Positions 14,801 through 29,967 of a stretch of DNA of 63,965 nt are shown here, one piece after another. The stretch's first letter is position 1. Every line of letters starts with the position of its first letter. The translations under genes were made by a program, and so were the position numbers. This DNA is from a virus (Duplodnaviria; Caudoviricetes), in the IMG/VR virus record IMGVR_UViG_3300037714_000156, positions 1 through 63,965 of that record. One strand, 5' to 3'. The notes below the pieces were generated by a model. It was given only the letters and a program-made list of their open reading frames with translations. It made no database searches and had not been told where the DNA came from.

Positions 14801-16003
14801 ATGTCAATCGCCAAATCATTAAGGAAAGCAAATTACCTAAGCGGTCTCTCCGGGGGTTTAACTGAAATAGGTATGATCCTTGAGGAAGAAAGAAAGAAAA
14901 AAGAACAAGCGAAGTTCTTTAACACCGTAACAACTCTTTATAAAAAATGGAAAGAAGGTCAGGAAAAAGCATCCAGACCATTCAAACTTAAAGAAGGAGG
15001 AGAAGTAAATAATATCTTCTCTCCAAATATTGTAAGACCAGGGGATAGGATGGGACGGTTTACAGGAGGAATCGGCGGAGAATTAAACGTGCCCGATCTG
15101 CCACCTGAAGTACCGGAAACACAAACACAGCCAATTCCGCAAAGCGAAAAATATTCAAAAGCGTCAGAAAATCTTGATGAGTTTATGCAGGCGATTGCTC
15201 CATCAGTATTAAACCCCAACATAGGCGAAGGGGAATTATCCCGTGTGAATGTATTGAGTGAACTTGCGAAACAGCAAACGGAAAGATTGAGACCTAAAGA
15301 CCCGACATATTTTAATCTGAGTCAGGGAGAAGAAAGATATCAGCAAGATGAGAAGGGTATAAAAAAGGTTGCCTTCAATCCTAAATTAAGCACTTCAAAT
15401 ATCGAAGAATATGAAAGAGATGAAAAGGGAAATTATAAAGTTTATACTATTGAAGGGCAGAAATATTACAATAAATTAAAGAAAGATGCTCAAGGCAATC
15501 AGGTCGGGGAAGAACTTACCAGAATACCGAAATCAGGAGAGGGCGGGACAACTATAAATCTGCCGGAGAATCCGCCGGATATTTCACAACAGGAAAAAGA
15601 TTTAACAAAATCGTGGGATAATTATGAATACTACAATAAGATAACAAAAGAGTTATCAACTGAGTTAGCGAAGATACAGGAAGAATACAAAACGGCAGCA
15701 GATGAAGTCCAGGCAAAAATAAAAATCAGGGCTAACGAAATCAGAGAACAGATAAAAACTGCGGACGAACAAAAAAGTATTTGGTACACAGATGTCAAAG
15801 GTACAACGAATCAACTCGCTAATAAATTAAACAGCAAAATGCCAGGCTTTGAAAAAATCTATAATCTATTATTCCAATCACCGGAAGTAAAAAGCAGAAA
15901 CGCAAAGAAGATTGATGATATGGTTGACAGGGAAATGGAAGGGGCAAGTGACGATGCTAAAAGATGGATGAAAAGAATTCTCAAGGTGAGGGCATTTGAA
16001 TAA
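14801..16003 (+). CDS. Internal virion/ejection protein
   Basis: 400-aa charged helical protein between the pilot and giant proteins; GAGGAGG RBS. Confidence 0.55.
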   Translation: MSIAKSLRKANYLSGLSGGLTEIGMILEEERKKKEQAKFFNTVTTLYKKWKEGQEKASRPFKLKEGGEVNNIFSPNIVRPGDRMGRFTGGIGGELNVPDLPPEVPETQTQPIPQSEKYSKASENLDEFMQAIAPSVLNPNIGEGELSRVNVLSELAKQQTERLRPKDPTYFNLSQGEERYQQDEKGIKKVAFNPKLSTSNIEEYERDEKGNYKVYTIEGQKYYNKLKKDAQGNQVGEELTRIPKSGEGGTTINLPENPPDISQQEKDLTKSWDNYEYYNKITKELSTELAKIQEEYKTAADEVQAKIKIRANEIREQIKTADEQKSIWYTDVKGTTNQLANKLNSKMPGFEKIYNLLFQSPEVKSRNAKKIDDMVDREMEGASDDAKRWMKRILKVRAFE

Positions 16004-19000
16004 TGGCAAAACAACCCTTTGATGATTTAACAAAGATTGCCGATAGGATAGAGCAGAAATATAACCTTGAATGGAAAGACAAGGAAGCTGACACCGACGT
16101 TCAGGATGATCTTACCGGAATAGCGAAACGAATAGAGAACAAATACAATGCCTCAAAACAGAAAACAGATCCGTTTACCGGGATAACCCGGCCAGAACTC
16201 ACTCCCGATTATGGTACATCACAAGATTTATTCAAGTTAGGACAGCCACCGGGAGATAAGCCAATCCAATTAAAAGATACGACAGCAATATCCGAAAGCA
16301 TCAAGCCACCAAAGACAGAGGGGAAAGATGTATTCACAGAGGAAGAATTTGACAATCAAACAAGAAAGATGGAAGGTACGCTCAGGCTGATAAAATCCCT
16401 GGAAGATTATCAAAAGGGAGAGAGTGTATTCGGAGTACCTTTACCAATTCAAACCGTTGCTGAACGACAGAAGAAAATAAAAGACAATCCGTACTTAATG
16501 ACGAGAGAAGAAGCGGAACAATTTTATTCTCAGAATCGGCACTTGCTTAGGGATCTAACTAACACGTCAAGATTAATGTTGAAAAATATTCCGGCAATAG
16601 GGACTATTGTTAATACTCTTTTATATCATGTCAACCCCGAAGGATATCAATATGCAATAGCAGATGAACTCAGACAAAACAAATCCGGGATAGATCAATA
16701 TGCTGATTACGCAGCAGAATTTTCAGGAAGTCTCGCAGGATTGTTTTCAATAGGCGGAGGAATTCATCAGGGAGTCAATACAATAAAAGCAATAGAAACA
16801 TTTGCTAAAACAAACAAAACGATAGCAGATGCAATAGCAGCATTTATCGCAGGAACGACATACGGAGGATTATCAGAAGCAGAAAATCTAAGATTAGGTT
16901 TAATAACACCAGAAGGAGCAATAGCAAACAGTCTCGCATCAGGAGTGGTATGGACTGCATTTACAAAGGTTGGCACAAAAGATTGGTTAAATCTCGGAAA
17001 GAAGATCACACCAACGGTATTGCCCGAAGGTCAAACCCTGAAGGGATTTGTACCGAAATATAAAGCAGTATTGAACGGGCAAAATGTTCAGGTTGGTTAT
17101 GTAAAAGACAAAGGATTTTTAACCACACGAATTGCGAATTGGTTTATTGATACCGGGTTAGTAACAGCCACGGGGACAGTATCGCATAAAGTTGCCAAAG
17201 CAGTAGATGATTCCGAAAAGAATGACACGCCATTAGTTGAGGAATTACAAAAACAATTTACCGAATTAGATTTAACACAGACCGGAATTGAATTTGCGTT
17301 AAATGCGATCTTCACCGGGACAATACCACGCAAATACGGGAAGATGCCACCACCGCCGATAAAAGGTGCGAAGGTTGAACCGAGATTACTTAAACCAGGA
17401 GAAGAAAACATTGATGCAACGGTAAGAGAATCAATGCAACCGAAACCAACCGGACCGCAGGATGTTCAGAGACCAACCGAAGTACAGCCCGTACCTCCTC
17501 CTCCGGTAAAGCCAACAGTAACACCACAGGAAGAAATAGAATTAACTCCCGAACCGGCTATAACTGAAGAACCCGTACAGCAAAGGACAATAGAAGACGA
17601 TGCTCAGGCGTTAAATATTCTTGCACAAAAAATGAGTAGGGGTGAAACCGATTTCACTCCCGAAGAATTACAGCTCCAACAAAGCTATCCTAATTACATC
17701 GAGGGACAGTTAAAGCAGATAAAAGAATCTCCCGAATACCAGGAACAACAAAGAGTCAAAAGACAGCAAGTAAAAGAAACAACTAAATCAGATAACGATA
17801 CCTATGCAGAAATAACCAGACGATTTAAGAACGCTCAGAGGAAGGGACAGCTTGCCGGGATTGAATCAATCAGGGAGGGCGTAACAACAATAACAACGCC
17901 TGAAGTCAGAACTAAAGCGGACGAATTACTGAAACAAGTTGAACAGCATAACAACAAGCTCAGGGAGAAAAATGAATTCACGCTTGAGAATTTAAGCAAG
18001 AAAATATATGGTAAAACAGATCTGAATACTCTTACCGTAGAACAGCAGCAAGGATTACTCGCTGAATACAACGAAATGAAGAAACAGGGAATCACAGAAT
18101 TCAGACCATTAAAAGGACCGGATGAAACACCATTAATAAAAGGAGATAAAGATGCCGTACAAAAGCGAAGCCCAGAGAAAATACTTCAACGCCAACCGGA
18201 AGAAATTGGAGAAGCAGGGAGTGAACGTGGAGGAATTCAACCAATCGTCAAAGGGCAAAAAATTACCGAAGCGGAAGAAGAAGGATTCCTTAAAAAAGAA
18301 AGTGATGAAGAAACTCGGATATTAAAACCCGAAGATGATCTGGAAGTAGAACCCGAACCGTCTGAAGCTCAGAAGGAAGCTGGAAACTATAAAAAAGGTC
18401 ACGTAGAAAGAGACGGACTCGACATCTCACTTGAGAACCTAAAAGGTTCTACCAGATCCGGCACAAATAAATCCGGGAAGAAGTGGGAAATAGAATTGCA
18501 GAATGATTACGGGTATATCAAAGGAACGACAGGAAAAGACAAAGATCATCTTGATGTTTTCCTGGCAGAAGATTATCAGGAAGACTCACCCGTATTTATA
18601 ATTAATCAGACAACCCCGGATGGGAAATTTGATGAACATAAAGTAATGCTCGGATTTGAAACTATGCTGCAAGCAGAGCAAGCGTATAACTCTAATTATG
18701 AAGAAGGAAAAGCATTTCATTCAGATGTTATTGAAATGCCGATGGAAACATTCAAGGTCTGGAGTAAAGAACCTCTCCTAACTAATAAACCTGCGGTAGA
18801 TAAAACTTCCATTGACAACAACAAAGTAGCTATTCAAAGGATGCTCAAACAGGGAAAGAGCATCAAGCAGATCGCCAAAGCACTTAATTTCTCTACTGAT
18901 GAAGTTATTAAGCAAGGAGGTTTGAAAGACCTGGCAGAATATTACGAGGGTGATGAGGCAGCGAGTATTTTGGAAGATGTTAAAGCAGGTAACGTAGTAA

Positions 19001-22000
19001 CTATTGACGCTGATGCTGAATCAAAACAAGAGGCGATGAAAAGAGTAAATCCGACTCTTTACAAGTTAGCACAAAAATCAGCCACGGTTGACGATTTTAT
19101 TAAAGCGGTTGCTAAATCAAGTAAAACAAGTGTTGAAAATATTTCTGCTGAAAATTTAACTGAATTTTATAACCGAGTAGAACCAATAAAGAAAGAGGTT
19201 GAAGCTGAGGTTGAACCGGAAACAAATATCGCCACAGATGCAAAGGGCTACCCGATAGTAACGGATAATTATGGTTATGACCACACAATAAAACTTTGGG
19301 GGACACACGTAGTCAGGACAAGCCCGATAAAAGAAGAAATATCAGAGAGCGGAATAAAGACAAGCAATTATACATTAGGCGGTTCAGGGTGGGAATGGTG
19401 GGGATTCAAAAAGCAGGGAGATATTTGGGAGGGTTATGTAGAGGGATTTGAAAATGAGTTTGGAACTTTTCTTGAGAGCGAATTAAAAGAAAACGGAATT
19501 AAGATTGTTACAGACCCAAAAGAATTACAAGAACTTAATCCTCCAATAGAGTGGAAGTGGAAACAGAAAAAAGTTACTAAGCCACAGAAACCACAGGAAT
19601 TGCCACAGGAATTGAAAGCAGAGAAAAAACCAACCAAGGCTCCGGAGCCCCAAGTTAAACCAGGGAAGAAGTCTGAAAAGCCATCGGTCATTGATGATGA
19701 AATGAAAAACATCATCAAGGATATAGAAAAAGGATTGGAAGGAATTACATTCCAATTAAAGAAACCACAACAGCCGGAGTTTAAGAAAGACATAGGACCC
19801 AAGGCAGTCCTCGGTAAAAAGAAACCTTCATTCCAATTAAAACCCGGTGAAAAGATTCCATCAGACGTACAGACTAAAGCGAATGATCTGATAGGAAAAT
19901 TTATTGATAAAGAAGTTTATCGTTTCAAAGATATTGTAGAAGCAACAGGGAACGCATTTGGAGAAGAAACTCTACAAAGAATATTCCCCGCACTCAAAGC
20001 AGGCTACACAGCATATCTTACTAACGCTACTGATGCCGAAACCAAAGAGATGGATTCTTTTGATATAGTAAAAAAATTCACTCTCGAATCTCCCGAAGGG
20101 AAAGAATACGATAGTTTACGCAAAGAAGTAAAACAACTTCTGATTGATGTTAATGAAATGACTCCCGCCCAAGCTGATTATAAGTTGAGGGGAACAAACG
20201 CAGCGACAATGGCAGGATGGAAGAAAGAACTTACAGAAAGAGCGGAAGCTAAAGGAGAGACAGGAATATCGAGACCCTTCATCCAGAGAGTAAGAGAAGA
20301 AATCCGGTCCGGAAACCAACTCAATAAAACTCAATTAGAAAAAATAGCTAATGAATTCGGTATCACAGATCCCAACGTCGCAAAGGAACAAGCTGAACTT
20401 GCCATAGTTGCTGAAGCAAGGAAGATTATTAACGAGAGCAAAAACGAAAAAGAAGCCTACGACAATATTGTTGAGCTTTACAATAATCAACCAAACCTTA
20501 CCCACAGGACAAATATCTCCGTTGAGAAACAGCAATACTCAACCCCTGCACCGATAGCCTATATTGCGGGATTGTTTGTTGCTGATGGAGTTGGTAACGG
20601 TGATGTATTAGAACCGTCCGCAGGGAACGGTATGCTTGTTATCTCATTTAACACAGGGCAGGTATATGTAAATGAAATAGATTCAGTAAGAAATACAAAC
20701 CTGAGACAGACCGGGTATGAAGGTATTGCAAATATTGATGCTGAAAAGAACGATAATATTTTCGGTAAAAAATTTGATGGGATAATAACCAATCCGCCTT
20801 TCGGAAAAAGTTCGGGCGAAAAGAAATTTAACGATTACAAGCTGAATAAACTTGAACACATTATGGCTGCCAATGCACTAAAACAAATGAACGCAGACGG
20901 CAGGGCTGCAATAATAATAGGCGGACATAATAGTTATGACAACAAGGGCAGATTGCAGAATGATAGGATATTCTTTAATTGGCTGAACCATTATTATAAT
21001 GTAGAGGCGGTATTAAACATTGAAGGTGATCTTTACAAGAAACAGGGGGCACAATTTCCTGTACGCCTTATATTAATTAATGGTAAGAAGGAAACCCCGC
21101 AAGGAGCATCACCGTTATACGATGCTCAAAAAGATGCGGTAATAAAAGATTTTGAAGATTTGTATAACAGAGTAAAGGAGATCAGAGATGAAACTTTATT
21201 ACGACCCGGAGATGATGTCCAACGAAGACCAGGCGGAATTACTGATGTGCGAAGTCCCGGAGGACGCAAAGTTCAAGAACCCGAAGGAGCTGAAACCTTA
21301 CCTGAAGTGGAGGTTGGAAGACCTGATAAAGAAAAGCCCACAAAGCCTTCCGAAGTTGGAGAGTTTGGTGTACGACCTTCTGGAACAGGAAAACCCGTAC
21401 GTGGAGACACCGGAACAGTTGGCAGACCTGATTCTGGAAAGCCCACATTACCAGGAAGTGTTCCAGGTGGTAAAGCAGGACAAGAAGGACGCAGAGACAT
21501 TGACACAGGAAGAAGCGGAAAAGATGTTCAACAAGGTTTCGATAGAGAGCCTCCTTCAGCTATTGCAAGAGCAATTTTAGAAGAAGGGAAACCCAATCTT
21601 CCATATAAAGCAGAATCTAAAGGAGTAACTCTTGAGACCGTCATACCCCGGAATATGGCTTATGAAACATCTAAACAATTACGGAATCTTGCTGAAGATG
21701 TTGGCGGTGATCTTGACCAATTCGTAGCAGACAAACTCGGATATAAAGACAAAGAAGAACTGTACGGTTACTTAGGTGCAGAGCAAATTGATGCGACAGC
21801 TATGGCTATCATTGCTATTGAGCAGGGGCAGGGAATGATTATCGGGGATATGACAGGAGTTGGCAAAGGTAGAATTGCTGCATCTATAATAAAGTATGGA
21901 GTAAGAGAAGGATATAAACCCGTATTCTTCACAGAGAAAGCTGATCTGTTTAGTGATTTCTACCGGGATCTGGTTGATACCGGAAGCAAAGATTTAATTC

Positions 22001-25000
22001 CATTCATTGTGAATAATCCAAGCGCTAAGAACTCCCCGAATATTGTTGATGAGGACGGCAACTTAGTTCATACTGCTTTATCCGGTGATAAGAAAAGTAC
22101 AATATTAAGAATCGGAGATTTGGGAAAATACGATTTTGTTCTCAGCACATATTCACAAGTAAATAGCGAGAGGAGCGGATTAAAAAGAAACTTCATAGAA
22201 GATTTAGTCAGAGACAATATTCTTGTTATGGATGAGAGTCATAATGCAAGCGGTGACTCAAACACAGGCGAATTTTTCAGAGACCTTGTTAGAGATGCTA
22301 AAGGGGTGACATATCTTTCGGCAACATTCGCCAAGAGACCGGACAACATGCCTGTTTATGCTGTTAAGACTGCGATCAGCGAAGCCAATTTAACAGAAGA
22401 TGGGCTTGTCGCAGCGATAGAAAAGGGAGGAGTAGCTTTACAGGAAATTCTTTCAACTGATATGGTAGAAGCCGGACAGATGATAAGAAGGGAAAAAAGT
22501 TATGAAGGAATTAAGATTGATTATAAACCATTAACCGAAAAGAAAACAGAGCATACAAAAATAGTAGATAGTGTTACTGAAATTATCCGGGACATAATTG
22601 CTTTCCAAAAGAATCATGTCAACGGAATAGTTGATGCTATGGATAATGATGCAGTCATGGAAGGAGAAAGAATCGGAGTTGAAACAGGAACAAATATGGC
22701 GGGGATTGATAACACCCCATTCGCTTCAAAAGTATTTAATGTAGTTGACCAATTACTCTTTTCACTAAAAGCAGATTCCGCAGCAGACGAAGCAATCGCA
22801 ACATTTAAGCAAGGGAAAAAACCTGTTATAGCAGTTAAGAATACTATGGAATCATTTCTTGATTATCTCGGAGTACAGGTCGGCGATATTATAGAGAATA
22901 CTGATTTCAGTTCGGTTCTTGAAAGAGGATTAAGAGGGATATTCAGAATAAGACGTGTGGATGTAACCGGGGAAAGTACACCGGACGAATTATCTATTAA
23001 CGATTTATCAGAAGATGGAAGAAAAGAATACAAAAGACTTCTTGATAAAATCAAAAGTACAACTGTTGGTATCACCATATCACCGATAGATCATATTATA
23101 TACAAGTTGAACAAAGCCGGATATAAGGTTGGTGAAATTACAGGCAGAGATATAACATTAAAATTCAGAGATGATGGCAAAGCCATAGTTGAAAAACGTA
23201 CAGAGAAAGACAAGAAAAAAACAATCAGAGATTTTAATAATTGGGAAAACCCCGGCACACCAAGAGGAATTGATAATTATACAGAGATGGCATTAATTGT
23301 AAATGCGTCCGGGTCGGCAGGAAGATCAGCCCACTCATCACCGAAATTCAAAGATCAACGCCAGAGGAAAATGGTAACAGTCCAGGTCGAGCTAAACATC
23401 AATACAGAAATTCAGAAGCGGGGAAGAATCAACAGGACCGGACAAGTAAATAAACCTGAGTATGTTACAATAGCAAGTGCTATCCCGGCAGAGCAAAGAT
23501 TGTTGATGATGGCGAAGAAGAAATTAAAATCGCTTGATGCAAACGTATCATCCGATCAATCGCAGGCAGGTACAACATTCGAGGCGAATGATTTTCTCAA
23601 TAAATATGGCGACAGGATAGTAATAGAATATCTAAAAGAGAATCGTGAATTAAATGATATGCTTTTAGACCCGCTAAAAATGAACATAATGAACGAGGAA
23701 GAAATTGAGAAGTTCACCAACAAAGAAAATGCTGCACATAAAGTAACGGGCAGAGTCGCAATACTGCCGACACATTTACAGGAAGAATTCTATAAAGAAA
23801 TAGGATTCAGATATGACGATCATATTGAATATCTAAACTCGATAGAAGAAAATGACCTTGAAGTAAAGATAATGCCCCTGGAAGCAATGACCACAAATAG
23901 CAGGATGATTGTAGCCGGGAAAGGTGGCGTAAGTCCTTTCGGCAGAGATTCAATGTTGGAGACAGCAGAAGTAAACGTCCTGAAAAAACCTTTCCGTATT
24001 GAAAAAGTAAATGAGTTGCTTGATAAATATTTAGATGGTAAAGGGAAAGATGAAAAGAAAAAAGGAATCATCAATGATTTACGAACATTCTGGAAAGGAT
24101 GGACGGAGGAACATCTTAACAGGAAAGTTCAAACCATCGCAAAGGATTTAAGAATAGAAAAAGAAGATGTCGTTAAATATGCTTCGAGAGGATTAGACGG
24201 CTTACCGGACCTGGTAATTAAATATCCACACTTGCTAAACAAAGAAGTATTTGTTGATACGGAGTTTAACAAATACAGACAGTTATCCGAAAGATTGGAA
24301 GCTCAGGGAAATTATGTATTCAATAATATCTTAGACAGATATGATATAGGCAGAGCATATAAAGTCCCACTTGTCAGAGATAATGTTGCCCCTATCTATT
24401 CAAACGGAATATTTTTAGGATGGGAGATCAGCCCAAAGAGAAGAAATCCCTATGCCCCAAGTGCTATCAAGATGAAATTTGCTGTTGCTGATTCCCGACA
24501 GATAGCACAATTCCAAGGTTCCAACAGGGATTGGCTTAATGATATAACGAGTGAAAGCAGTTCATTAAGTGCATGGCAGCAAAAAGATATGATCGAGGAT
24601 TGGGATAACGCTTTGTCCGATCACCGCCGGGAGATTAAACCGATAGTAACAGGTAATATACTTCAGGTAATGGGCGGGAACGATGTTAAGGGAGGACAGT
24701 TAATTTCCTATACGACAAAAGACGGAGGAATAAAAAGAGGTATTCTTATACACGACAGCAAATCAATTGCAGGAACAGACATAAGAGTACCGATTAAGAG
24801 AGCAAGAAAATACATTCAACAATTACCTCTCGGTGATTTTATAGAAAGTTCAGCCGGTGAAATAGTAATTGCTAATACCGGAAATAATTATTGGGAAATA
24901 GAAGTACCCGCAAGCAAAGCAAAGGGAGGGAAATTCTATCTCGATGAAGGAATGAAAGGATTAGTCAAAGACGGAAGATTCGATAAGGTTGGTAATGCAA

Positions 25001-28000
25001 TGAGAGCTGAATTCAAAAGAGATAATCTTGATAAGCTCATTGATATACTTCAGAAAGATTTCGGAATATCCGTAAGACTATCACAGGAACAGATGAGGAA
25101 GATCAGCGATGATGATAACACCTTTCAGTTAAAACCAGGGAAGGCTTATAAAGATGATTTTAATAATAACATTCCCCCGATATTCAGTAAGCATCACGAA
25201 TATAAATTAAGCCATCCATATCTGAAGCATACGGAAGTTGAATTCGCACAGCCCAAGATAGCATTCTGGACGAGAGAACATATTAAATCTATTGGCTATA
25301 CAGACGCTTTTGTTAATACATTACCCAAATTAGAAAAAGGAGATTATGGTTATGAACAAGGAAAAGAAAAATTCGCAGTCGAAATTGCAGGATACTCCGG
25401 CTATGACCCTGAAGGGGGCGGGGCAATCATCATTGTCAGCAGCACAGCGACTCCATCTGCTTATACCGAAGAAATTATCCACACAATCCAGAAAAGACTT
25501 AAAACAGAAAATCCAGAACTCTTACAAAAAATTGAGCAATGGGAATCCATAGTAAAGAAAGAGGGTAAGGAATTCGGAGTAGAGATTCCAGATGGATATG
25601 AAACATTTGCACAAGCAATGGTATTCACTCATCTCGGATATGCAAATGAAAATCCGGATGTTGCTGAAGTATTTGAGATCCCGAAAGACATTCTTGATGA
25701 ATTCACAGCAATACTAAATCTTGGGAAAATATCTTCTGACGTATTAAAAGGAGAATCACAGAGAGGGATAATCAGACTGCCTTCCGGTAAGATTGACAAC
25801 TCATTACAAAACTTCCGGCAAAAACGACAGGGGACAGCGTTACAACTAAAACCGCCGGAAGATAAGAAACTAAGCAGAGCGAAGGGATTATATTCTCAGT
25901 TAAAATCAGAACTTGGAGAGAAAGCAGACGTTTATCCTGAATGGATTAAACAGATGAGAAAGGAATATGGCAAAGAGTTTGATAAGGAGGCGAGAAAAGT
26001 ATGGAAGGATATGAAAGAACCTGCGGGATTAACTGAAAAAGAATTTCAGAAAAAATATTACTCAAGACACATAGATATTCGGGGCAGAGGCGGGGAAGCA
26101 CTTGAGAACATTGAAAAAATAAAAAGAGAAGGATTCCACTCTGTTTATGCAAACGCATTGCCAATGGGCGTAGGAGAAGGAAAACCGGGTACGGAAACTA
26201 TAACAGACAAACAATATTCTGTTAGAAAAGGCGATGTAGTTTACCTGATTCCAAAAGAATATGTGCTGAATATAGGGACATCAAAACCGGAAAAAATAAA
26301 AGCAGGATGGAAGCCGAAAGACGAAGATATAGTAATTGCAGAATATGATAAACAACCATTATATGAACTTTACAAAAAGAAGTTTGAGCAACAATCATCA
26401 CACCAACTCAAACCTGCGTCCAAAGAATTAATCAATAAGGTCGAAGCCAAAGGGTTGATGATAGATCAGAACCTTGTTGCGACATATAACATAAAAGGTG
26501 AGCCGAGAGAATTCATATCAGTCAGTACACCTGGTCCGGGGCGGAAGCATACCTTATCTTTAGAGGTCAGCAAACTTGACGATGAATTAAAAAAATTCAC
26601 CGGAATAAAAAAATCAATGTTGCTATCTCCGAATGAGATATTATTAAATAGTAAAGGCAGATTCCCGACTCCACTTGCCATAGCAGAAGCCAAAGAAATT
26701 CTCAAAGATAAGTTTGACTCGGAATACCAGAAATTCAGGGAGGAGAATAAACCGCCCAAAAATTTCGATTTAATTTTTGAAGAAGGATTAATCTTAGAGA
26801 ATTTTGCCCGGAAAGTTGTTGCAGCAGATAAACTTGGTATAAAAGATATTAATGCTGATTTGTGGAGTGAGGCGACAAAGATTGAGCGACCAGGAAAATC
26901 AGCCTTCCAACTCAGGAAACCAAAGAAGGACCGGTCCGAAAAACTATTAGGTAAGAAAAAAGAAACAGAAATAGCCAGAGAACAGAACCGGGAACCCGAG
27001 AGCGGAGAAGGTAACGTAGTTGATTTCGGAGTTGGGTTAGGTCAGGTATTTACAGTCACGGCGGATAAGATAAATGATTTTATCAAGAACAACAGGCTTG
27101 AAAAAGAATTAGGAATAGAAGGAGACCCAAAACTAAGAAAGTTATACCGGGAATTTCTTACAGCTCCCCAATGGTTTTTCGATAAAGAACCGCAGTTGAA
27201 AAGAATATGGGATATTGTTGACAGACACTTCGTAAGAAATGTTAATGAAGAAACTGCAATCCTCAGAGAAGATAAATGGCAGAATGGAAAGCCCTGGAGA
27301 AAATTAAGCGAAACAGAGAAAACCGAATTCTTGTCTGCACTAAAAGAATATGAGCAAGTTCAATATGAACTTCAAAGAGACGGCGAATCTCTTGAGTTAC
27401 TTGATTGGGCTGATTACGCAGATGAACATGCTCTGACACCGGGAGTAACAGAATTATTATTCAATGTTTATAAACCTGTAATTGAAACCGCTCTTGATAT
27501 GGTTAAAGATGTTGACCGATATAAAATCATCAATGAGACGAAAGTAAATCCATATCTTGAAAATTACTACATAGCAAAAGAGAGCGGTGCAAGACAGGAA
27601 TTTCTTGATAACACATTAGAGAAAGCGAGAGAAGAATTCTTTAATGACGACCCTAATGCGGAAGCCCTTTACGAAAACGAATTATTAAGGATGGCAACGG
27701 GGAAAGCAGATCCGGTCAGAGCCTTAGAGTTAGCTTGGGGGAACAATCCAAATTTAAGAGAGACACTTGCAGAAGTATTAATCGGTAAGAAATATGAGAA
27801 GATAGACGGCAAAGTTTATTTCCCATCATCAAGATTAGAGAATAAATATTTCCTAAGTGCAATCAAGAAGTCAACGCCTGAAGAAAAACTTATTGAGGGA
27901 ATACAGGATGATAAATTCTTCACAACGAATAATAGCCTGGCAAAGCTGAACACTATAAAAGAGGAATTAGAAGCTCAGGGATATGACACTAAGGTAGGAA

Positions 28001-29967
28001 AGTTTGCAGAAGCTCAGCAGGAGATATTAAATAATGCGATCACTCAGGAAGATTTACTTGACTTGGCATTATCGGCAGGCATCGAGAACGATAATCCATT
28101 ACTTGAACGATTAGTAAAAACAATTCAGGCGAAAGGATTCAGCAGGCATTTCATTCCAAAAAGATTTATTCCGGGATTTGAATACACAACAGAGAATTTT
28201 GAGAAAGCAATCTTCAGATATATGAACTCTGTACCGTTTTATAAAAACAGAACGATAGGCGGAAAAGAATTCGGCAAGGTGATGGGGTTACTCAAACACA
28301 CCGGAGTATTAAAACCAGGGTCAGCGAATGATAAGTATCTTCAGGATCTAAGAAATAAAATTGAGAATAGAGATATAAAATTATCTCAGGCATTAAGGGC
28401 GGTAGCATCAACATATTATCTGGCGTTATCTCCTGCTTATTTATCTCAGCAGATCGTACAACCTCTTAATACATTACTCCCGTATCTCCCGATAGTAGCA
28501 AAAGAACTTGGATTAAGAGGAGCTGAAGCTGAAAAGGCATTTGGTGAGTCGTTAGCAACATCATTACAATATTGGGCTTGGAAAACTTATGACAAAATAA
28601 ACAGAATGACGGGCAGACCGACCAGGGGCAGATTCGGATTAGACCCTGAATTCTTGAGTATCATCAGATCGCTTGAGAGACAGGGAGTAGGCAAGCCATT
28701 AAGGACACTCGAATTAGCCGGTCATGAGGTTGACCCGCAGAAACATTATGATGCAAATCTTTTATCTAAAGGCGTGAGCGGAGTGGCGTGGTTAGGGAAG
28801 ATATCAGGTATGCCAGGTATTCTTGTTGAGGATTTCACACGGACAATCGGCATAAGAGCGTTATACCTGATGGGGAAAAAAGCAGGACTCAGGGGAGCAA
28901 AGATGGAGGACTTTATTTCAACAAACATTGCGAAAACTTTCGGTCCGGCTTCAGGAAGATTGGCGAAACCTCCTGGTTACTACATAGCCGGAGAAGGTAG
29001 AGCAAAACCAATGAAAGAGATTGCACAATCAACAATAGAGTCGTGGTTAACATTCAAGAATTTTGCATTTATGAATTACGGTCAATGGGGAAAAGTATGG
29101 AGAGCGTTAAAGAACGATAATATGTTCAGACCTTTAGCATATAAAACCGGGGCACAGATTGGATTGGGCGGAGTAAAATATATGATGTGGACTGCATCAA
29201 TACTTACTTTACTGAGTGGCATATACGCAATGCTCAATATAACAGAAGACCCGGAAGAACAATATGAGGACTTATTCAAACACTTCAATAAACTAGTTCC
29301 GGGATTAGGTGACGCACTATACAAAGGAATATCATCAATAACATTCAAGGTTGATCTATCCGCTCTGTTTGCTCAGACCGCACCATTAGAAGAACCGTTT
29401 ACGAAAGATGCTATTGAACTTATAGGCGGGGCTCCTGCATCTGCGATAAAAGATATAGTAACAGGTACACCACCGAGAGCGTTGAGAGGTTTTGAGATGG
29501 CGGAGAGATACGAAGAAGAAGGAGTAAAGTTAGGCAGCAGAAAACTTATTCCGTCGGATGAAGTATCTGAATCAGATAAAACAAAAAGGAAACTTGGATT
29601 TACCCCGTTAGATATTTCAGACACATATCAAAAAGAAAATACACGGCAGTTCAAGTCAAGTCAATACACAGATATCATCAGGAAGAAAGTTGCAGAAGAA
29701 ATTATCCCGATGATAAACGCAGGCAACGGAAGCCAGGCAAAAGAAGAATTCAAAAAATTATTTGCTGATATGAAAGCTGATAATGTTTTAACCGAAGGAC
29801 AATTAAAATCCATCGAGGGAGTGAATTCATTTATCTCCCAAGTTGTATTAACTCGTCTTGAAGGTGATGAGAGAGAGACAATAAAGACCTGGAAAAATAA
29901 AGGAGTAACTCCAAAGACCGACAGCAGAAACCGGGAAAGATCAACAAGCCGGGAAAGAACCCGCTAA
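16003..29967 (+). CDS. Giant polyvalent (DarB-like) ejected protein: InPase-like, DUF2958-like, N6-adenine MTase, Strawberry-notch/SF2 helicase and C-terminal membrane-associated region
   Basis: EAQKEAGNYKKGH...DYGYI...DHLDVF (InPase); VLEPSAGNG and ITNPPFG (MTase); GDMTGVGKGR, MDESHNA, QKRGRINRTGQ (helicase). Confidence 0.9.
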   Translation: MAKQPFDDLTKIADRIEQKYNLEWKDKEADTDVQDDLTGIAKRIENKYNASKQKTDPFTGITRPELTPDYGTSQDLFKLGQPPGDKPIQLKDTTAISESIKPPKTEGKDVFTEEEFDNQTRKMEGTLRLIKSLEDYQKGESVFGVPLPIQTVAERQKKIKDNPYLMTREEAEQFYSQNRHLLRDLTNTSRLMLKNIPAIGTIVNTLLYHVNPEGYQYAIADELRQNKSGIDQYADYAAEFSGSLAGLFSIGGGIHQGVNTIKAIETFAKTNKTIADAIAAFIAGTTYGGLSEAENLRLGLITPEGAIANSLASGVVWTAFTKVGTKDWLNLGKKITPTVLPEGQTLKGFVPKYKAVLNGQNVQVGYVKDKGFLTTRIANWFIDTGLVTATGTVSHKVAKAVDDSEKNDTPLVEELQKQFTELDLTQTGIEFALNAIFTGTIPRKYGKMPPPPIKGAKVEPRLLKPGEENIDATVRESMQPKPTGPQDVQRPTEVQPVPPPPVKPTVTPQEEIELTPEPAITEEPVQQRTIEDDAQALNILAQKMSRGETDFTPEELQLQQSYPNYIEGQLKQIKESPEYQEQQRVKRQQVKETTKSDNDTYAEITRRFKNAQRKGQLAGIESIREGVTTITTPEVRTKADELLKQVEQHNNKLREKNEFTLENLSKKIYGKTDLNTLTVEQQQGLLAEYNEMKKQGITEFRPLKGPDETPLIKGDKDAVQKRSPEKILQRQPEEIGEAGSERGGIQPIVKGQKITEAEEEGFLKKESDEETRILKPEDDLEVEPEPSEAQKEAGNYKKGHVERDGLDISLENLKGSTRSGTNKSGKKWEIELQNDYGYIKGTTGKDKDHLDVFLAEDYQEDSPVFIINQTTPDGKFDEHKVMLGFETMLQAEQAYNSNYEEGKAFHSDVIEMPMETFKVWSKEPLLTNKPAVDKTSIDNNKVAIQRMLKQGKSIKQIAKALNFSTDEVIKQGGLKDLAEYYEGDEAASILEDVKAGNVVTIDADAESKQEAMKRVNPTLYKLAQKSATVDDFIKAVAKSSKTSVENISAENLTEFYNRVEPIKKEVEAEVEPETNIATDAKGYPIVTDNYGYDHTIKLWGTHVVRTSPIKEEISESGIKTSNYTLGGSGWEWWGFKKQGDIWEGYVEGFENEFGTFLESELKENGIKIVTDPKELQELNPPIEWKWKQKKVTKPQKPQELPQELKAEKKPTKAPEPQVKPGKKSEKPSVIDDEMKNIIKDIEKGLEGITFQLKKPQQPEFKKDIGPKAVLGKKKPSFQLKPGEKIPSDVQTKANDLIGKFIDKEVYRFKDIVEATGNAFGEETLQRIFPALKAGYTAYLTNATDAETKEMDSFDIVKKFTLESPEGKEYDSLRKEVKQLLIDVNEMTPAQADYKLRGTNAATMAGWKKELTERAEAKGETGISRPFIQRVREEIRSGNQLNKTQLEKIANEFGITDPNVAKEQAELAIVAEARKIINESKNEKEAYDNIVELYNNQPNLTHRTNISVEKQQYSTPAPIAYIAGLFVADGVGNGDVLEPSAGNGMLVISFNTGQVYVNEIDSVRNTNLRQTGYEGIANIDAEKNDNIFGKKFDGIITNPPFGKSSGEKKFNDYKLNKLEHIMAANALKQMNADGRAAIIIGGHNSYDNKGRLQNDRIFFNWLNHYYNVEAVLNIEGDLYKKQGAQFPVRLILINGKKETPQGASPLYDAQKDAVIKDFEDLYNRVKEIRDETLLRPGDDVQRRPGGITDVRSPGGRKVQEPEGAETLPEVEVGRPDKEKPTKPSEVGEFGVRPSGTGKPVRGDTGTVGRPDSGKPTLPGSVPGGKAGQEGRRDIDTGRSGKDVQQGFDREPPSAIARAILEEGKPNLPYKAESKGVTLETVIPRNMAYETSKQLRNLAEDVGGDLDQFVADKLGYKDKEELYGYLGAEQIDATAMAIIAIEQGQGMIIGDMTGVGKGRIAASIIKYGVREGYKPVFFTEKADLFSDFYRDLVDTGSKDLIPFIVNNPSAKNSPNIVDEDGNLVHTALSGDKKSTILRIGDLGKYDFVLSTYSQVNSERSGLKRNFIEDLVRDNILVMDESHNASGDSNTGEFFRDLVRDAKGVTYLSATFAKRPDNMPVYAVKTAISEANLTEDGLVAAIEKGGVALQEILSTDMVEAGQMIRREKSYEGIKIDYKPLTEKKTEHTKIVDSVTEIIRDIIAFQKNHVNGIVDAMDNDAVMEGERIGVETGTNMAGIDNTPFASKVFNVVDQLLFSLKADSAADEAIATFKQGKKPVIAVKNTMESFLDYLGVQVGDIIENTDFSSVLERGLRGIFRIRRVDVTGESTPDELSINDLSEDGRKEYKRLLDKIKSTTVGITISPIDHIIYKLNKAGYKVGEITGRDITLKFRDDGKAIVEKRTEKDKKKTIRDFNNWENPGTPRGIDNYTEMALIVNASGSAGRSAHSSPKFKDQRQRKMVTVQVELNINTEIQKRGRINRTGQVNKPEYVTIASAIPAEQRLLMMAKKKLKSLDANVSSDQSQAGTTFEANDFLNKYGDRIVIEYLKENRELNDMLLDPLKMNIMNEEEIEKFTNKENAAHKVTGRVAILPTHLQEEFYKEIGFRYDDHIEYLNSIEENDLEVKIMPLEAMTTNSRMIVAGKGGVSPFGRDSMLETAEVNVLKKPFRIEKVNELLDKYLDGKGKDEKKKGIINDLRTFWKGWTEEHLNRKVQTIAKDLRIEKEDVVKYASRGLDGLPDLVIKYPHLLNKEVFVDTEFNKYRQLSERLEAQGNYVFNNILDRYDIGRAYKVPLVRDNVAPIYSNGIFLGWEISPKRRNPYAPSAIKMKFAVADSRQIAQFQGSNRDWLNDITSESSSLSAWQQKDMIEDWDNALSDHRREIKPIVTGNILQVMGGNDVKGGQLISYTTKDGGIKRGILIHDSKSIAGTDIRVPIKRARKYIQQLPLGDFIESSAGEIVIANTGNNYWEIEVPASKAKGGKFYLDEGMKGLVKDGRFDKVGNAMRAEFKRDNLDKLIDILQKDFGISVRLSQEQMRKISDDDNTFQLKPGKAYKDDFNNNIPPIFSKHHEYKLSHPYLKHTEVEFAQPKIAFWTREHIKSIGYTDAFVNTLPKLEKGDYGYEQGKEKFAVEIAGYSGYDPEGGGAIIIVSSTATPSAYTEEIIHTIQKRLKTENPELLQKIEQWESIVKKEGKEFGVEIPDGYETFAQAMVFTHLGYANENPDVAEVFEIPKDILDEFTAILNLGKISSDVLKGESQRGIIRLPSGKIDNSLQNFRQKRQGTALQLKPPEDKKLSRAKGLYSQLKSELGEKADVYPEWIKQMRKEYGKEFDKEARKVWKDMKEPAGLTEKEFQKKYYSRHIDIRGRGGEALENIEKIKREGFHSVYANALPMGVGEGKPGTETITDKQYSVRKGDVVYLIPKEYVLNIGTSKPEKIKAGWKPKDEDIVIAEYDKQPLYELYKKKFEQQSSHQLKPASKELINKVEAKGLMIDQNLVATYNIKGEPREFISVSTPGPGRKHTLSLEVSKLDDELKKFTGIKKSMLLSPNEILLNSKGRFPTPLAIAEAKEILKDKFDSEYQKFREENKPPKNFDLIFEEGLILENFARKVVAADKLGIKDINADLWSEATKIERPGKSAFQLRKPKKDRSEKLLGKKKETEIAREQNREPESGEGNVVDFGVGLGQVFTVTADKINDFIKNNRLEKELGIEGDPKLRKLYREFLTAPQWFFDKEPQLKRIWDIVDRHFVRNVNEETAILREDKWQNGKPWRKLSETEKTEFLSALKEYEQVQYELQRDGESLELLDWADYADEHALTPGVTELLFNVYKPVIETALDMVKDVDRYKIINETKVNPYLENYYIAKESGARQEFLDNTLEKAREEFFNDDPNAEALYENELLRMATGKADPVRALELAWGNNPNLRETLAEVLIGKKYEKIDGKVYFPSSRLENKYFLSAIKKSTPEEKLIEGIQDDKFFTTNNSLAKLNTIKEELEAQGYDTKVGKFAEAQQEILNNAITQEDLLDLALSAGIENDNPLLERLVKTIQAKGFSRHFIPKRFIPGFEYTTENFEKAIFRYMNSVPFYKNRTIGGKEFGKVMGLLKHTGVLKPGSANDKYLQDLRNKIENRDIKLSQALRAVASTYYLALSPAYLSQQIVQPLNTLLPYLPIVAKELGLRGAEAEKAFGESLATSLQYWAWKTYDKINRMTGRPTRGRFGLDPEFLSIIRSLERQGVGKPLRTLELAGHEVDPQKHYDANLLSKGVSGVAWLGKISGMPGILVEDFTRTIGIRALYLMGKKAGLRGAKMEDFISTNIAKTFGPASGRLAKPPGYYIAGEGRAKPMKEIAQSTIESWLTFKNFAFMNYGQWGKVWRALKNDNMFRPLAYKTGAQIGLGGVKYMMWTASILTLLSGIYAMLNITEDPEEQYEDLFKHFNKLVPGLGDALYKGISSITFKVDLSALFAQTAPLEEPFTKDAIELIGGAPASAIKDIVTGTPPRALRGFEMAERYEEEGVKLGSRKLIPSDEVSESDKTKRKLGFTPLDISDTYQKENTRQFKSSQYTDIIRKKVAEEIIPMINAGNGSQAKEEFKKLFADMKADNVLTEGQLKSIEGVNSFISQVVLTRLEGDERETIKTWKNKGVTPKTDSRNRERSTSRERTR
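18152..18325 (+). CDS. Nested +1-frame gene: 57-aa basic protein MPYKSEAQRKYFNANRKKLEKQGVNVEEFNQSSKGKKLPKRKKKDSLKKKVMKKLGY
   Basis: AAAGGAGA RBS just upstream; resembles small phage proteins starting MP[FY]KSxAQ; below the ORF-track length cutoff. Confidence 0.7.
   Translation: MPYKSEAQRKYFNANRKKLEKQGVNVEEFNQSSKGKKLPKRKKKDSLKKKVMKKLGY
21188..21580 (+). CDS. Nested +1-frame gene: 130-aa acidic helical protein
   Basis: AAGGAG RBS at 21175-21180; globular-looking composition while the host frame is a G/R/P-rich linker over the same span. Confidence 0.7.
   Translation: MKLYYDPEMMSNEDQAELLMCEVPEDAKFKNPKELKPYLKWRLEDLIKKSPQSLPKLESLVYDLLEQENPYVETPEQLADLILESPHYQEVFQVVKQDKKDAETLTQEEAEKMFNKVSIESLLQLLQEQF

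Follow-up and report, generated by a model that had tools for sequence, protein, structure and literature searches.

A short reading frame within a giant phage gene

IMG/VR record IMGVR_UViG_3300037714_000156 is a complete virus genome (Caudoviricetes) of 63,965 bases with direct terminal repeats; this whole stretch is called the window below. Its plus strand carries a giant open reading frame (ORF) for a polyvalent virion protein, and a much shorter ORF of the same strand lies wholly within it in another frame (Table 1). An earlier note, made from the letters of the DNA alone, had described a ribosome binding site and an ATG at 18152 that open this 57-amino-acid (aa) ORF in the +1 frame, and both its coordinates and its translation proved exact. 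The 57 codons end with a TAA stop at 18323-18325 and translate as MPYKSEAQRKYFNANRKKLEKQGVNVEEFNQSSKGKKLPKRKKKDSLKKKVMKKLGY, a protein that we refer to as P0001. Homology, selection and start signals indicate that this ORF is very probably a real, selected and separately initiated overlapping gene.

The enclosing ORF combines several unrelated effector domains in one polypeptide, within a virion-module context, as expected of a polyvalent protein. Pfam recognized InPase (PF18823, residues 788-922), HTH (941-965), N6-methylase-like (about 1560-1647), AAA_34 (1940-2177) and Helicase_C_4 (2361-2611) domains. The neighboring gene upstream carries an ejection/tail-fibre-like domain, and the terminase and portal genes are located in other parts of the genome. 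Among the nested hosts, the only close relative of the giant protein, 56-76% identical, comes from a viral locus numbered L034. Where the two frames coincide, the host frame forms the linker between the N-terminal 716 aa and the InPase domain, ending 12 residues short of the latter. Its composition and lack of a Pfam domain agree with the description in the earlier note, which had taken the host frame here for a disordered-looking linker just before InPase.

Table 1. Features of the giant gene and of the ORFs nested within it, in window coordinates.
Feature	Position	Strand	Basis and remarks
Candidate nested gene, 57-aa basic protein P0001	18152..18325	+	+1 frame of host ORF 16003..29967
Shine-Dalgarno core AAGGAG	18140..18145	+	6 nucleotides (nt) 5' of the ATG; full stretch AAAGGAGA at 18139-18146
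Two TAA codons closing the nested frame just 5' of its start	18134..18139	+	Sequence, +1 frame; stop-to-stop run starts at 18140
Conserved N-terminal module, residues 1-41	18152..18274	+	MPYKSxAQxKYFNANRKKLEKQGVNVxEW/FNxxSKGKKLPK; alignments A1 and A2; three short helices predicted
Variable Lys/Arg-rich C-terminal tail, residues 42-57	18275..18322	+	Partly conserved with L034, where an in-phase insertion of 27 nt occurs
A_AAA_AAG heptamer, codons 47-49	18292..18298	+	Nested frame; read from the sequence
Dual-coding stretch, host residues 717-775	18151..18327	+	Acidic, hydrophilic, E/K/Q/G/P-rich; without Pfam domain
Host giant ORF, 4654 aa, polyvalent virion protein	16003..29967	+	Pfam domains
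InPase domain of the host	18364..18768	+	Pfam E 4.1e-49; begins 39 nt past the nested stop
Second nested ORF, 130 aa, P0334	21188..21580	+	+1 frame of the same giant gene

P0001 belongs to a widespread family of small proteins

The earlier note mentioned similar small basic proteins as free-standing genes in phage head modules and proposed looking for them. Such relatives exist in number: among 5.8 billion proteins, 431 of 31-100 aa matched P0001 at E≤0.01 (best E 1.6e-15; 58-88% identity among the matches listed), and free-standing genes of the family lie beside terminase or portal genes. At locus L039, the gene is found just before a small-terminase-like gene, which is followed by the large terminase; at L013, it comes after the terminase and at L072 before the portal gene. 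A profile built from 117 members retrieved 1015 cluster representatives at a threshold of E≤0.001, of which 357 also passed E≤1e-10. We use the working name MPYKS for this family, which is defined by our alignments A1 and A2.

The family consensus, MPYKSxAQExYFNANRKKLEKQGVNVDEWNxASKGKKLPK, is followed by a variable tail rich in Lys and Arg. P0001 contains every invariant column of A2 (P2, S5, Q8, F12, G23, V24, L38 and P39), and its module shares 28 to 36 of 41 residues with each of 59 other unique copies. With its basic tail, the 57-aa protein also fits the format of the free-standing members, in which module and basic tail together measure 43-84 aa. Conservation of the module spans phages of 31-65% GC, including those that use Shine-Dalgarno (SD) sequences and those that do not.

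Neither Pfam nor PHROGs contains this family. Pfam gave no match to P0001 at E≤1 and no family assignment among the 117 members, and PHROGs returned only phrog_30301 for P0001 (E 0.019) and two single-member matches among 117 relatives. No match was found by tblastn against 50,697 GenBank phage records with the low-complexity filter on. Literature searches on the MPYKS motif produced nothing relevant, and we found no description of the family or of genes nested in polyvalent proteins. DUF3008 (PF11450), which we take to comprise small proteins with a similar N-terminal motif, was rejected as the family: HMMER did not bear out the resemblance, with no match at E≤1 for P0001 and none at E≤10 among the 117 members. 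A viral cluster in the protein atlas (score 0.84), 15% of whose members carry DUF3008, is a lead only. A resemblance to ribosomal protein bS21 was likewise dropped, as no such Pfam match occurred among the 117 members.

The length of the nested ORF is unremarkable. Two ATG ORFs in the +1 frame of the giant gene exceed it, at 130 and 68 aa, and an alternative-frame ATG ORF of at least 57 aa appeared in 47% of 300 shuffles of synonymous codons. Both the shuffles and the 68-aa ORF, which lies in an alternative frame without frame-specific selection (see below), are what one would expect if the frame were open by chance, in coding DNA rich in A and in purines. Homology and selection refute this explanation, which we regard as vanishingly improbable: besides the match at E 1.6e-15 among 5.8 billion proteins, P0001 matches the family profile within the window genome at E 2.8e-29, and selection on the nested ORF is frame-specific. 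It is these two lines of evidence, not length, that raise the ORF above chance.

The module occurs free-standing, fused and nested

To place the window's copy among its relatives, we used two sets of loci. The first comprises the best-scoring 80 of 416 viral relatives, ranked by likeness to the query; the second, independent set holds 67 module loci (L164-L230) from a collection of species-representative genomes, all of them metagenome-assembled genomes (MAGs). Of 331 fetched family members, 291 begin with the module at residue 1; in 38 it starts between residues 2 and 60, and in only 2 does it lie deeper in the protein. The module opens with MP in 324 members, with VP in 3 and with LP in 2, so that it practically always begins at a start codon.

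Three genomic states could be distinguished. Free-standing members encode 43-84 aa and lie in late operons whose genes are tightly packed; one of them (L064) lies directly 5' of a protein with a weak ART-PolyVal match. In the fused state, represented by 95 longer proteins (101-1380 aa), the module occupies the exact N-terminus in 87. When 77 of these were scanned, the partners were DUF6321 (9), NUDIX (2), Zn peptidase (2) and SET (1), and most had no assignment. At L010 and L011 (6001-7356), the module is in frame with proteins ending in DUF6321 (PF19846), sometimes together with NUDIX. DUF6321 is absent from the window genome, and a literature search on it found nothing.

The nested state was seen at 40 of the 80 best viral loci, inside ORFs of 427 to more than 3370 codons. 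The phase is invariant: at all 40 loci the small ORF lies at +1 relative to its host. Among the 67 MAG loci, 49 copies were free-standing and 3 fused, 13 had the host frame open across the module (with about 6 to 8 of these hosts long or giant), and 2 had only a short third-frame run open across it. Nesting is a substantial minority state, and the 50% share in the viral set reflects the ranking of that set by likeness to the query.

The MAG loci include many from Acidobacteriaceae and Bacteroidota, as well as Verrucomicrobiae, Clostridiales, Burkholderiales and others, and none comes from an isolate. Long Acidobacteriaceae contigs carrying the module, up to 3.8 Mb, suggest integrated prophages.

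Selection acts on the nested frame

We compared 32 unique nested copies of the module with 28 unique non-nested copies. The earlier note had proposed a frame-specific selection test, which we ran as the ratio of nonsynonymous to synonymous differences (pN/pS). Computed from raw proportions, with synonymous sites near saturation (pS 0.69-0.91), pN/pS in the small frame was 0.25 for nested and 0.24 for non-nested copies, compared to 1.93 and 1.45 in the host frame. Mean pairwise amino-acid identity was 0.735 (nested) and 0.719 (non-nested) in the small frame and 0.463 and 0.328 in the host frame. Entropy at small-frame codon positions 1, 2 and 3 was 0.57, 0.36 and 0.92 in nested copies and 0.63, 0.48 and 1.39 in the others.

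The enclosing frame bears its own mark. No host-frame stop occurs over the 42 host codons spanning the module in any of the 32 nested copies, whereas all 28 non-nested copies contain 1 to 10 stops each. Given stops in every non-nested copy, an open host frame is not the default and must be maintained. At small-frame third positions where a T would create a host stop, T was found at 0 of 617 sites in nested copies, compared to 126 of 490 in non-nested ones; in other contexts the counts were 13 of 695 and 90 of 658. Because T is nearly absent even where it would be harmless, avoidance of stops alone would not seem to account for this pattern. Codons beginning with T, among them those for Phe, Tyr, Cys and Trp, appear to be excluded from the host frame, as expected for a translated hydrophilic linker.

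Stops accumulating in this frame in relatives would, according to the earlier note, have spoken against a gene. They do not accumulate: no stop interrupts the 41-codon module at any of the 40 nested viral loci, and at 39 of them the start codon is retained at residue 1 (in L012, it lies one codon later). The same observations bear on whether the ORF might be a decaying relic of a swallowed gene, intact in appearance but neither expressed nor needed. In favor of a relic, ribosomes may initiate inefficiently within an ORF that is already being translated. However, a pN/pS of 0.25 at near-saturated synonymous divergence, as in free-standing copies, is not what decay would leave behind, nor are modules and starts this consistently intact. 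In addition, SD presence follows local SD use (see below), and the nested copy is the only one in all six genomes checked, being the sole match in the complete window genome and a single copy in five of five other nested genomes (two of them complete). We consider a relic very unlikely.

The nested ORF has its own start signals

An AAGGAG core precedes the nested ATG at a spacing of 6 nt and is among the strongest in the window, where an SD core of at least 4 nt stands before 27 of 45 genes. SD presence tracked local usage among unique loci that contained four or more ORFs of at least 80 aa, a requirement that removed 8 nested and 2 non-nested loci. An SD core preceded the nested ATG at 5 of 5 loci with SD in at least half of their genes, compared to 2 of 19 loci with fewer; for non-nested copies, the counts were 10 of 12 in SD-using loci and 1 of 14 in others. 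The RNA around the start is unstructured, its fold being no better than that of shuffles (z 0.21). A scan for internal promoters gave one weak sigma-70-like site against 1.5 expected. Taken together, these sequence comparisons show a nested module that behaves as a protein-coding unit under purifying selection, with start signals that match the host translation system and an enclosing frame held open by codon choice.

Since two in-frame TAA codons stand just upstream of the start, no frameshift from the host sequence upstream could lead into the small protein. A shift at its other end is conceivable. In such a scheme, translation from the small ORF's own ATG would slip by -1 at A_AAA_AAG (18292-18298) to yield a protein joining the module to InPase, methylase and helicase. 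The heptamer is of the classical kind and in the right phase, with slippage by -1 leading from the small frame into that of the host, and an in-frame N-terminal module is precisely what 87 of 95 longer relatives possess. However, heptamers occur in 12 of 33 nested and in 11 of 28 non-nested unique ORFs, at differing codons and of differing types, and the closest relative, L034, has none at the window's site. Nested and free-standing tails also share the same length range and composition. We rejected a programmed -1 frameshift cassette, as the slippery heptamer is not conserved at one place, and the slip itself seems most improbable.

The enclosing proteins are diverse

Forty-one nested hosts, the window's included, formed 16 clusters by their upstream parts and 8 by their downstream parts, without a BLAST link between clusters. 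A Pfam scan of nine other nested hosts identified domains in five and none in four. The five are the hosts at L001 (GGACT, with a Zeta_toxin match just below the Pfam cut-off), L003 (DUF3293), L005 (ART-PolyVal and RadC), L012 (ART-PolyVal) and L070 (DUF7178 and a weak ART-PolyVal match). As judged by BLAST and Pfam, the nested hosts are mostly unrelated, and several are polyvalent proteins. The module was not found within 4 kb of InPase at any of 80 loci whose InPase is 48-56% identical to the window's; InPase lay within a long ORF in the 53 of these loci that were mapped. This absence and the diversity of hosts place the module outside the host protein's own architecture.

The position of the stretch, at the border of variable upstream and downstream host parts whose 16 and 8 clusters combine differently, is also where a nucleic-acid element might be sought, either a recombination junction of polyvalent parts or an RNA signal, with conservation of the peptide as a by-product. 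The pattern of variation is that of a protein instead. Small-frame codons vary mostly at their third position, and free-standing copies, with their other frames closed, are constrained at the protein level in the same way. The DNA itself averages no more than 0.65-0.74 identity, and the RNA folds no better than shuffles. A nucleic-acid element as the sole explanation is hardly credible, but a role as a recombination junction could exist alongside coding.

In five loci (L061, L066, L069, L071 and L074), no more than about 45 codons separate the start of the large ORF from the module downstream, and the short N-terminal peptides of these ORFs have in common the loose motif ..E.ELK.YL..GGL...DLSKIK. 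A similar motif, DLS.FKNIK, lies 5' of the module in the L018-L058 group. The DLS-type motif may be a small conserved element of the host frame adjoining the module.

In the window's own giant protein, the N-terminal 716 residues (16003-18150) and the C-terminal 1000 or so (about 27000-29967) contain no Pfam domain and include hydrophobic stretches. The T7 capsid-assembly family is matched weakly (E 0.039) at residues 4008-4070. Both terminal parts would be reminiscent of internal or ejection proteins.

The giant gene contains a second nested ORF

P0334 repeats this arrangement further downstream, where it overlies a host linker rich in G, P and R between methylase and helicase. A TAA at 21173-21175 and an AAGGAG at 21175-21180 precede it. 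The ORF is kept from start to stop in L034 (9553-9936) at 72% identity, with a pN/pS of 0.29 compared to 1.55 in the host frame. One homologue was found, a protein of 133 aa with 45% identity over the full length (E 1.1e-21). P0334 has no Pfam match and no fold match; its best AlphaFold2 (AF2) model reached a predicted local distance difference test (pLDDT) score of 81.5 and a predicted template modeling (pTM) score of 0.74, with the four other models at 37-46. A second nested gene in the same ORF suggests that the phenomenon is not a one-off.

A third alternative-frame ORF, of 68 aa (25346-25552, plus strand), served as a negative control. It is open in the relative L162 at 49% identity, with an ATG-to-TTG change at the start, and its pN/pS of 0.65 compared to 0.73 reveals no frame-specific selection. 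This ORF is probably a by-product of conservation in the host frame.

Predicted structure and proposed roles

The AF2 model of the 57-aa protein (mean pLDDT 81.8) has helices at residues 6-14, 16-21 and 26-33, followed by a basic helical tail. Foldseek returned no PDB match to this model at E≤10. The best hit in BFVD (E 0.32) was a 44-aa uncharacterised phage protein, and a wide VIA fold search reached a best Z of 2.4, with no convincing fold match. P0001 has no Cys, hydrophobic stretch, lipobox or signal peptide.

Sequence signals and selection together lead us to the following model. Ribosomes would initiate independently at the AAGGAG and ATG of the small ORF, internally on the late mRNA of the giant gene, and produce a 57-aa protein consisting of a 41-residue three-helix module that needs a free N-terminus and a Lys-rich tail. 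The same 174 nt would also be read in the host frame as a hydrophilic linker before InPase, with codon choice keeping both frames open. The very high conservation across diverse phages points to a partner shared by phages whose hosts differ widely, which the invariant helical head would bind. The basic tail would bind nucleic acid, to which its Lys content points.

How the two frames came together is a separate question. The giant ORF may have read through, fused across or engulfed a pre-existing small gene. The small gene belongs to an old, widespread family present in three states, which would make the giant ORF the newcomer over this stretch, and the strict N-terminal position of the module would explain why it was kept in another frame and not in frame inside the giant polypeptide. 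The earlier note had likewise proposed that the giant protein grew by reading through a gene that remains translatable. The part about a translatable gene has held up, with an SD and ATG of its own, a pN/pS of 0.25 compared to 1.93 and a sole copy in the genome. A pre-existing gene that was read through also fits a family far wider than any host ORF and the absence of the module from the 80 InPase relatives. The direction and mechanism of the event did not find the same support, and an origin from a gene that fused an N-terminal module to an effector is equally possible. No common upstream neighbor was found among the loci.

Several points weigh against our interpretation. Apart from the ordinary length of the ORF and the near saturation of the synonymous sites behind the pN/pS values, a ribosome translating the host frame could hinder internal initiation. 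The nested share depends on the sample, at 40 of 80 viral loci compared to 13 of 67 MAG loci (6 to 8 in long ORFs). With regard to the direction of the event, we found no split relatives at E≤1e-6 that combine the same flanks with a free-standing module. In a tree of 60 unique module DNAs, which is biased by the dual-coding constraint, the nested label changes at least six times, but well-supported branches force only one change, so that the tree would fit one or several nesting origins alike. As for function, that the small protein is a virion- or effector-associated accessory is a tentative suggestion drawn from context and composition.

A broader proposal is rather doubtful. Giant polyvalent virion proteins of uncultivated phages might systematically hide conserved, separately translated small genes in an alternative frame of the linkers between their domains, with two such genes (18152..18325 and 21188..21580) in the present ORF, and MPYKS might be a near-universal cofactor of injected effectors, acting as a loading or delivery adaptor or as a binder of DNA ends or the nucleoid. 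If true, MPYKS would work only with a free N-terminus and would be kept in a fused giant gene only through dual coding. The enclosing frame would then be the newcomer, the reverse of ordinary overprinting, and current annotation would miss a sizeable share of a widespread phage protein family.

As a rule, gene callers skip small ORFs that overlap a longer ORF on the same strand. Nested copies would be passed over in this way, and the distribution of the family and the gene content of these phages are probably underestimated. The free, fused and nested states of the gene can be compared with one another, which makes the case a clean natural system in which to study the sharing of one sequence by two frames. 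The case also links an uncharacterized protein to injected polyvalent effectors, whose biology is poorly understood.

Comparison with known systems

Same-strand nested genes are already known in phages; Rz1, for example, lies in the +1 frame. The novelty of the present case is that it combines an undescribed, strongly conserved and widespread family, nesting in the same phase within linkers of many unrelated giant polyvalent proteins, and a nested frame that is the older and more constrained of the two.

The host ORF resembles the phage-type polyvalent proteins in which Iyer et al. (2017, PMC5512222) placed InPase: it has many effector domains (InPase, methylase and Sno-type helicase) and a virion gene context. 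The terms "frameshift," "overlapping" and "alternative reading" do not occur in the main text of that paper, and a gene nested in polyvalent linkers, as seen here, is not described in that text.

The spanin genes Rz and Rz1 of phage lambda and its relatives offer a close likeness in gene arrangement. As described by Kongari et al. (2018, PMC6139136), this one gene pair occurs in embedded, overlapped and separated architectures. Here, too, a small same-strand gene sits inside a larger phage gene in another frame, and several architectures exist. P0001 itself is no Rz1-like o-spanin, as it lacks Cys, a lipobox and a signal peptide. Rz and Rz1 are partners of similar size, whereas the host here is a giant polyvalent virion protein, and the module has a third state, the in-frame N-terminal fusion.

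In overprinting, as treated by Pavesi (2021, PMC8227390), a new protein arises inside an older gene. The present case is similar in that one stretch of DNA would encode two proteins in two frames under opposing constraints. The ages of the frames are reversed, however: here the nested frame is old, with free-standing homologues and a pN/pS of 0.25, and the enclosing frame would be the derived and fast-changing one, with a pN/pS of 1.93.

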